Sequence record: PV933157.1
DNA from: Escherichia phage 24-32N
Reading direction: 5' to 3' (one strand)
Length of the DNA: 64,000 nucleotides
In this document: one piece after another, positions 62,403 through 62,995 of the stretch
Layout of the letters: each line of letters starts with the position of its first letter
How positions within the stretch are numbered: the stretch's first letter is position 1
Notes under the pieces: generated by a model
What the model was told of the DNA's origin: nothing
Seen by the model: only the letters and a program-made list of their open reading frames with translations
Databases searched by the model: none
Translations under genes and position numbers: made by a program

Positions 62403-62684
62403 ATGGTATTCACTAAGATAAATAACACCATCTCTGTGCCAAGTTTTATACAGCATAGAAATATAGAGCAAATGGACGAGGTGCTTATCTTAGTTCCAGA
62501 TGAACAGTCCATGCATGAACTACAAGGCTTACTCTTCTTGCTTAATATGAAAACAGAAGTATATCTCCTTGAACCAGGTACACCTATGTCCTGGCAGGAT
62601 AGCTTCAGTCCGTGGCATCTCAATACAGACAAGTACATCCTATCCTTCGAGGGTAACACCCCCATCTACAAGGAAAGGCTATGA
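62403..62684 (+). CDS. Small early-like protein, paralogous family member
   Basis: Motif PDEQSMHELQGLLFLLNMKTEVYLLEP. Confidence 0.45.
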   Translation: MVFTKINNTISVPSFIQHRNIEQMDEVLILVPDEQSMHELQGLLFLLNMKTEVYLLEPGTPMSWQDSFSPWHLNTDKYILSFEGNTPIYKERL

Positions 62685-62995
62685 AACTAAACACGTCCCC
62701 TTATCCGGTACAGTTAGAAGTAGTATTCGACTGGGGTATCTTCTCTAAGAAGTACAAGAAAGCTAAAGGCATTGAACCAGAGGAACAAAGCAAAGGTGTT
62801 ACTACATTACTACCTGATGGTTCGGTACTTCTTTATGTACAGGATAATGACCCTATTATTTTGGTTCATGAGCTTAATCACTTCTGCATATACACCTTCG
62901 GATTCATTGGACTACCAATTAATGATGATAATTCCGAGGCTTATTGCTATTACATGGACAGTCTTCTTAAGCAGGTACTAAAACATGAACGTTAA
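62681..62995 (+). CDS. Small protein with HExxH motif (possible mini metallopeptidase-like fold; distant relative of the paralog family)
   Basis: PIILVHELNHFCIY. Confidence 0.4.
   Translation: MKLNTSPYPVQLEVVFDWGIFSKKYKKAKGIEPEEQSKGVTTLLPDGSVLLYVQDNDPIILVHELNHFCIYTFGFIGLPINDDNSEAYCYYMDSLLKQVLKHER

Follow-up and report, generated by a model that had tools for sequence, protein, structure and literature searches.

A 104-residue HExxH protein of the N4-like phage 24-32N as a probable minimal zincin metallopeptidase of a widespread phage protein family

What use would a phage have for a free-standing protein of about one hundred residues which carries the zinc-binding signature HExxH? This question is raised by a small gene on the plus strand of Escherichia phage 24-32N (PV933157.1; positions 62681-62995 of the 64,000-nucleotide stretch that was analysed as a whole, hereafter the window), an N4-like coliphage (genus Gamaleyavirus, family Schitoviridae), in which the 3.2 kb around the gene are 83-95% identical to IME11, PhAPEC5, Bp4, Mimir124 and about 55 further records. 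An initial annotation, made from the sequence alone, had recognized the HExxH signature in the 104-residue product and had connected it with an array of paralogous small genes nearby. The open reading frame (ORF), which begins with ATG and is given with its stop codon, its translation as quoted there and the motif HELNH at residues 63-67 (62867-62881, plus strand), embedded in PIILVHELNHFCIY (residues 57-70), are all real. We propose, with a probability of roughly 0.7, that the gene product is a stand-alone, minimal zincin metallopeptidase of the gluzincin type, which serves as an accessory effector by cleaving a host or competitor protein.

The motif as such is weak evidence. Upon shuffling the residues of the 145 six-frame ORFs of at least 60 amino acids in the whole window, 0.67 +/- 0.84 HExxH motifs are expected while three are observed, in the 104-residue protein, in a gp25-like protein and in the virion RNA polymerase (vRNAP), and a single occurrence is thus within chance. 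It is by virtue of its conservation that the motif of the 104-residue protein is taken as real. The protein matches phrog_1365, a family annotated without function in PHROG, over its full length (hidden Markov model (HMM) search, E 1.3e-25, residues 1-102). A word-indexed search retrieved 103 close relatives, all of approximately 104-110 amino acids and from contigs of N4-like phages, in which HE[LV]NH is kept together with a block SEAYCYY further downstream, while an exhaustive profile search among 1.84 billion representatives yielded 839 proteins at E<=1e-3, almost exclusively single-domain proteins of 95-150 amino acids; no fused domains were detected in the longer family members (137-330 amino acids) that were scanned. 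Conservation was counted in 149 representatives and in an alignment of 134 sequences with 17-57% identity to the query, every one of which matches phrog_1365. HE..H is present in 149/149 representatives; counted from the second His, a Glu stands at precisely +19 in 137 of them and between +18 and +20 in almost all the rest. H63, E64, H67 and E86 are the sole invariant columns of the 134-sequence alignment, joined by the near-invariant Y90 (99%) and G39 (97%). Retention of the motif among homologues, on which the initial annotation had let its proposal depend, is therefore complete in both sets (149/149 and 134/134).

The second pillar is the position of the fourth invariant residue. HEXXH-X18-E is the classical spacing of gluzincins as in the M1 family, and the Glu at +19, located on the next helix, conforms with the gluzincin combination of HEXXH plus Glu. 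A third metal ligand, for which the initial annotation had suggested to look, has thus a candidate in E86, which is invariant, stands at the beginning of helix 85-99 in the model and is predicted to complete the zinc site. The metzincin motif HEXXHXXGXXH/D, on the other hand, is not present: I/L/F occupies position +3 and F/L position +6 counted from H67, and the 134-sequence alignment contains neither a conserved Gly, His or Asp of the metzincin extension nor a conserved His anywhere downstream of HExxH. In SprT and Spartan, the third ligand is a His after the motif. As the metzincin extension and a conserved third His are both missing, the family belongs neither to the metzincins nor to the SprT/Spartan type.

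An AlphaFold2 model based on a 21-sequence alignment is of high confidence (pLDDT 91.6, pTM 0.84). According to DSSP, its elements are, in order, a strand (12-15), a helix (18-29), two strands (39-43, 49-53) and two helices (58-75, 85-99), whereby residues 12-53 (62714-62839, plus strand), delimited by the model, DSSP and column conservation, form an N-terminal subdomain of a three-stranded sheet with an N-terminal helix. H63, E64 and H67 all reside in helix 58-75, in agreement with the expectation of the initial annotation that the two His and the Glu of the motif share one helix, and E86 opens the following helix 85-99. The metallopeptidase (MPTase) core of the zincins has been described as a three-stranded sheet and an N-terminal helix, followed by a first C-terminal helix with HEXXH and a second C-terminal helix that bears a zinc-binding Glu (PMC5512222). 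The predicted order of elements in the 104-residue protein is that of this core and contains nothing beyond it; HEXXH is found in the first C-terminal helix and, by model and alignment, the Glu on the second one.

Fold comparison points in the same direction. Foldseek against predicted viral structures gave 24 matches at E<=1e-3, almost none of them named, which reach TM-scores of up to 0.85, and every viral neighbour that does carry a name and has E <= 0.01 is a zincin peptidase, with the labels BepA-like (6.2e-4), SprT-like (8e-4), 'Metalloprotease' (1.2e-3), IrrE (4.8e-3) and 'Peptidase' (9.9e-3), the latter with a low TM-score. Sequence-based searches of the PDB returned DsbD as the best match of the single protein (E 0.15) and no matches with the 21-sequence profile; a deep profile matched weakly to astacin-type BMP-1/tolloid (E 0.04-0.06) and to Spartan (E 0.29), with all of these matches running through the strand and the HExxH helix. 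The 104-residue protein itself has 0 Pfam matches and no match in NCBIfam or PADLOC, and its 134 relatives gave only scattered matches below threshold. Among those in Pfam, zincin families are the commonest, with SprT-like in 13/134 members (best E 0.007) followed by DUF4344, M50B and astacin, besides single matches to M4, M10, M76, M91 and unrelated families. No entry of Pfam, NCBIfam, PADLOC or the PDB captures the family, the members of which are annotated as hypothetical in almost every record and carry no precomputed Pfam domain; phrog_1365 is probably a new family inside the zincin/gluzincin superfamily that is contained in no curated family.

Several known systems invite comparison. Minigluzincins, reportedly introduced by López-Pelegrín and co-workers in 2013, are said to be soluble minimal gluzincin scaffolds of about 100 residues related to M48 and M56. 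The 104-residue protein would resemble them in its size of around 100 residues, its stand-alone catalytic core and its HEXXH with a downstream ligand on the next helix; the BepA-type label on one viral structural neighbour (E 6.2e-4) refers to M48 as well. The likeness to SprT-like proteins, Wss1 and Spartan (PF10263) comprises a small HExxH domain and the commonest weak Pfam match, although all such matches stay below the Pfam threshold. In contrast to SprT/Spartan, the family possesses an invariant Glu at +19 in place of the conserved downstream His, and the 104-residue protein has no zinc-ribbon or DNA-binding extension. Membership in the SprT-like/Spartan family (PF10263) was rejected with 0 Pfam matches for the window protein and no conserved downstream His, and membership in the ImmA/IrrE family M78 (PF06114), which includes CapP of CBASS, with neither a Pfam match nor an adjacent helix-turn-helix repressor. 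The minimal zincin core is also common to the MPTase domains that polyvalent proteins of phages and plasmids contain (PMC5512222), equally phage-borne, but these domains sit within giant injected proteins while the 104-residue protein is free-standing.

If the site works as in other gluzincins, H63 and H67 of the active-site helix together with E86 of the following helix would hold one Zn2+, while E64 would be the general base by which the zinc-bound water is activated. A peptide substrate would run along the edge strand of residues 49-53 above the HExxH helix, and Y90, one turn past E86 in the segment E86-A-Y-C-Y90 (62936-62950, plus strand), probably buttresses the site. As E64, which is not a metal ligand, is invariant, we argue that catalysis has been retained. 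Zinc binding and peptidase activity are both predicted from the conserved site in the model. Would the protein alternatively employ its zincin fold without cleavage, as a decoy, inhibitor or metal-dependent adaptor which acts by binding? Many small phage accessory proteins act stoichiometrically, and a very small protein without an accessory substrate-binding domain would suit such a role. However, E64 and all three predicted ligands are invariant in 134/134 sequences, while a pseudo-enzyme family of such size and divergence would be expected to have lost E64 in some lineages, which renders a non-cleaving binder quite unlikely. Far more improbable still is that the motif binds iron or another metal for chemistry other than peptide hydrolysis, as in a hydroxylase of the aKG-HExxH type or another hydrolase. 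HExxH does occur in such enzymes, as the N4 structure paper points out (PMC13434306), and 3/134 family members match TIGR04267 mod_HExxH weakly (best E 0.011); these matches are nevertheless far below threshold and restricted to the three members, and the invariant residue in third place is a Glu, spaced as in gluzincins within a predicted zincin core. In addition, aKG-HExxH enzymes are much larger.

Which protein would such a peptidase cut? By inspection, the 104-residue protein contains no signal peptide and no transmembrane segment, and action in the cytoplasm of the infected cell is therefore expected. As found by tblastn, the family extends over Gamaleyaviruses, N4-like phages of Klebsiella and Pectobacterium, Kuttervirus, a T7-like Enterobacter phage, phages of Achromobacter, Ralstonia and Pseudomonas as well as P22-like Lederbergviruses. 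The P22-like member is hkcC, which overlaps sieA in the 'ant moron' of immI, and the Kuttervirus member is gp68 of Det7, the PhiSH19 copy of which is labelled 'NrdA.1'. HkcC of P22/HK620 (family HMM, E 1.8e-21) and gp68 of Salmonella phage Det7 (E 3.7e-32) are both true family members with HExxH and the downstream Glu, yet they share no more than roughly 25-30% identity with the window protein and differ in genomic context, with HkcC in the ant moron and Det7 gp68 in a nucleotide-metabolism region. hkcC has been listed among genes without known function (PMC2629481; PMC4837284), and a literature search found no functional study of the phrog_1365/hkcC family. As an aside, in the P22-like phage UAB_Phi20 (L002:2416-3306), hkcC overlaps the 5' part of the superinfection exclusion gene sieA by approximately 185 bp on the opposite strand, an antisense overlap that is unusual for the immI region of P22.

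The genomic position of the gene differs accordingly between phages. In N4-like phages it is found at the right genome end, in the P22-like phages in the non-core ant moron between gene 16 for an ejection protein and the gene of the tailspike, in Kuttervirus among small genes near nrdA (the link to nrdA deriving from the PhiSH19 label) and on metagenomic phage contigs at operon boundaries; no neighbour is conserved across these contexts, and the closely related Mimir124 lacks the gene. Such a distribution is that of an autonomous accessory gene, which appears dispensable and mobile. As the gene is absent or variably placed and non-core, its product is more readily seen as an accessory effector, devoted to host takeover or counter-defence, than as a core morphogenetic protease; on the basis of the model and of these contexts, an effector role in the host cytoplasm would be the most plausible one. 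As the main alternative, an active mini-zincin might instead process phage proteins, its own or those of the injected or polyvalent class such as vRNAP, and not host proteins. Autoprocessing has been proposed by Iyer et al. as the main role that MPTase domains have in phage polyvalent proteins (PMC5512222), the best profile match of the family among the domains tested lies in vRNAP of the same phage (see below), and in P22-like phages the gene resides between an ejection-protein and a tailspike gene. We nevertheless regard this as unlikely, since the family occurs in unrelated phages without vRNAP (P22-like, Kuttervirus, T7-like), the gene is missing from a close and presumably viable Gamaleyavirus relative, and no structural gene is a conserved neighbour. 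The cleavage of a host or competitor protein remains the preferred reading.

The similarity to vRNAP deserves consideration of its own. The vRNAP ORF (28786-39138, minus strand) encodes 3450 amino acids and contains TLVHELVHA at residue 2184, with HExxH at residues 2184-2188 (32575-32589, minus strand), which nearly equals the consensus TLVHELxHA of the small family. The motif belongs to C1, a subdomain of the C-terminal domain of N4 vRNAP (residues 2124-2375), for which the 2026 structure paper of N4 noted the conserved HExxH but assigned no function (PMC13434306), while Iyer et al. (2017) had placed the C1 region in the MPTase superfamily (PMC5512222). In a C1 profile of 14 diverse schitoviruses, assembled by tblastn over 13 phage genomes, HExxH is invariant and no downstream Glu is; E86 of the small family aligns with a non-conserved C1 position that is occupied by Gln in N4. 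By hhalign, the small family matches C1 with a probability of 89.5% (P 2e-6, score 44.9) over 91 columns, approximately the whole small protein. With the C1 columns shuffled and the nine-residue motif block kept, scores of 36.5 +/- 2.2 were obtained (maximum 44.5), so that 0/100 shuffles reached the observed 44.9, and when the motif block was masked the probability fell to 0.3%. These controls place most of the score in the nine-residue block, which weakens the case for homology to C1. Comparison with the DUF2201_N zincin of the same phage gave 31% for the small family and 2.7% for C1; the likeness between the small family and C1 is thus more specific than generic zincin similarity and, at the level of sequence, suggestive of a specific kinship.

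The DUF2201_N zincin mentioned is part of a 419-amino-acid protein similar to N4 gp25 (2368-3627, plus strand), which combines a DUF2201_N putative metallopeptidase domain (E 9e-57), with HELWHVAYLH at residue 109, and a VWA-like DUF2201 domain (E 4e-34), and homologues of which are mislabelled 'HNH endonuclease' in several GenBank records. As each of the three HExxH motifs of the window is part of a protein or domain that can be assigned to the zincin superfamily, the phage encodes three distinct zincin-type modules.

Is the small peptidase also related to the genes which surround it? Six small paralogous genes are arranged in tandem between 60913 and 63323 on the plus strand (60913/60925-61203, 61404-61802, 61705/61768-62082, 62086-62400, 62403-62684 and 62985-63323 in the ORF list), assigned to PHROGs 7213, 9160, 11661, 12099, 16338 and 12606 (N4 gp70/gp71-like); the annotators of PhAPEC5 had tied the first genes of the rightward cluster to N4 gp70 and gp71. 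The existence of the array, next to which the initial annotation had placed the HExxH gene, is borne out, but the gene lies inside it, flanked by the paralogs at 62403-62684 and 62985-63323. The initial annotation had further seen a resemblance between the hydrophobic stretch ahead of HExxH and the paralog motif, from which it derived that the HE[LV]xG family may have arisen by inactivation from a mini-metallopeptidase-like fold. On a local scale, a helix with H-E-[LV] does follow a hydrophobic strand in both. In single-linkage BLASTP clustering of the equivalent regions of eight phages, however, the six window neighbours fall into one cluster of 42 members and the HExxH proteins into a separate cluster of seven with no link between the two; hhalign of the paralog profile with the HExxH family gives a probability of 0.4%, and the resemblance is thus only superficial. 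PHROG cross-hits join the paralogs to each other and never to phrog_1365, and the family HMM scores the paralogs within the window at E 0.16-13. The core shared by the paralogs is hhhhP-D/E-x-E-x-x-[HA][ED]-x-x-G, in which 'HE' is swapped in whole subfamilies (ADEFIG, ADFAQG, ADSTRG) and only the Gly is kept in >=80% of the members. A low-confidence paralog model (6-sequence alignment, pLDDT 54.8) contains one helix and otherwise strands, its moderately confident stretch being strand-helix-strand followed by more strands. With BLASTP, hhalign, the PHROG cross-hits and the exchange of HE all against it, descent of the paralogs from a mini-metallopeptidase has next to no probability left. Independently of this question, copy number and content of the array vary among close relatives, with Mimir124 having two phrog_12606 copies and no HExxH gene.

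As fold and mechanism of zincins are textbook knowledge, the chemistry proposed here is unsurprising, and what invites study is the biology. No fewer than 839 sequence clusters, including those of model phages (P22/HK620 hkcC, N4-like, Vi01-like and T7-like phages), would share a complete and invariant predicted protease site within a length of some 100 residues. Among small phage proteins of accessory nature, those with an enzymatic site are foremost candidates for host takeover or counter-defence, P22 genetics makes testing easy, and a zincin core of 104 residues represents a convenient minimal scaffold for structural work. A much bolder and rather improbable extension would see in phrog_1365 a phage-wide class of minimal proteases, free-standing and directed at a conserved host protein, be it a defence or a housekeeping factor, which they cut early in infection, and at the same time the solo form of the HExxH domain of vRNAP. 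If true, the vRNAP domain would have been captured from the small effector or would be its ancestor, and study of the small protein would reveal the role of the unexplained C1 domain; should the link to C1 hold, it would provide an experimental handle on a conserved and unexplained domain of the N4 ejection machinery.

With respect to its immediate surroundings, the phrog_1365-family zincin-like gene at 62681-62995, delimited by the ORF list, the phrog_1365 match and homologues of the same length, is preceded by a Shine-Dalgarno-like AAGGAAAGG (62670-62678, plus strand), read from the sequence just 5' of the ATG. The ATG overlaps the TGA stop codon of the upstream gene (ATGA), which suggests translational coupling to this gene, and the stop codon overlaps the start of the next gene (62985). 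With start and stop overlapping both neighbouring genes, the gene is part of a tightly packed plus-strand operon. The array region has on one side the terminase genes, transcribed leftward on the minus strand (58470-60080 and 60052-60741), and on the other side the terminal repeat and a homologue of the left-end gene 1, and is therefore located at the extreme right end of the genome. At around 63400-64000 (plus strand), the window passes from the array via the terminal-repeat region into the homologue of N4 gene 1 (ORF start at 63742), for which IME11 has the name '12 kDa protein in genome left end'; as the window runs through the terminal repeat into this gene, the source sequence is circularly permuted or covers a concatemer junction. 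In Mimir124, a short direct terminal repeat begins directly after the last array gene.

As transcription signals for the array, only a weak sigma-70-like site (60689-60717) and one hairpin were seen. The latter (61352-61377, plus strand) is a strong terminator-like structure with an 11-bp stem containing seven G-C pairs, followed by a T-run; it separates the first array gene from the remainder, and PhAPEC5 has a terminator annotated at the equivalent site. This arrangement suggests a transcript of its own for the first paralog or, for the downstream genes, a need for read-through.
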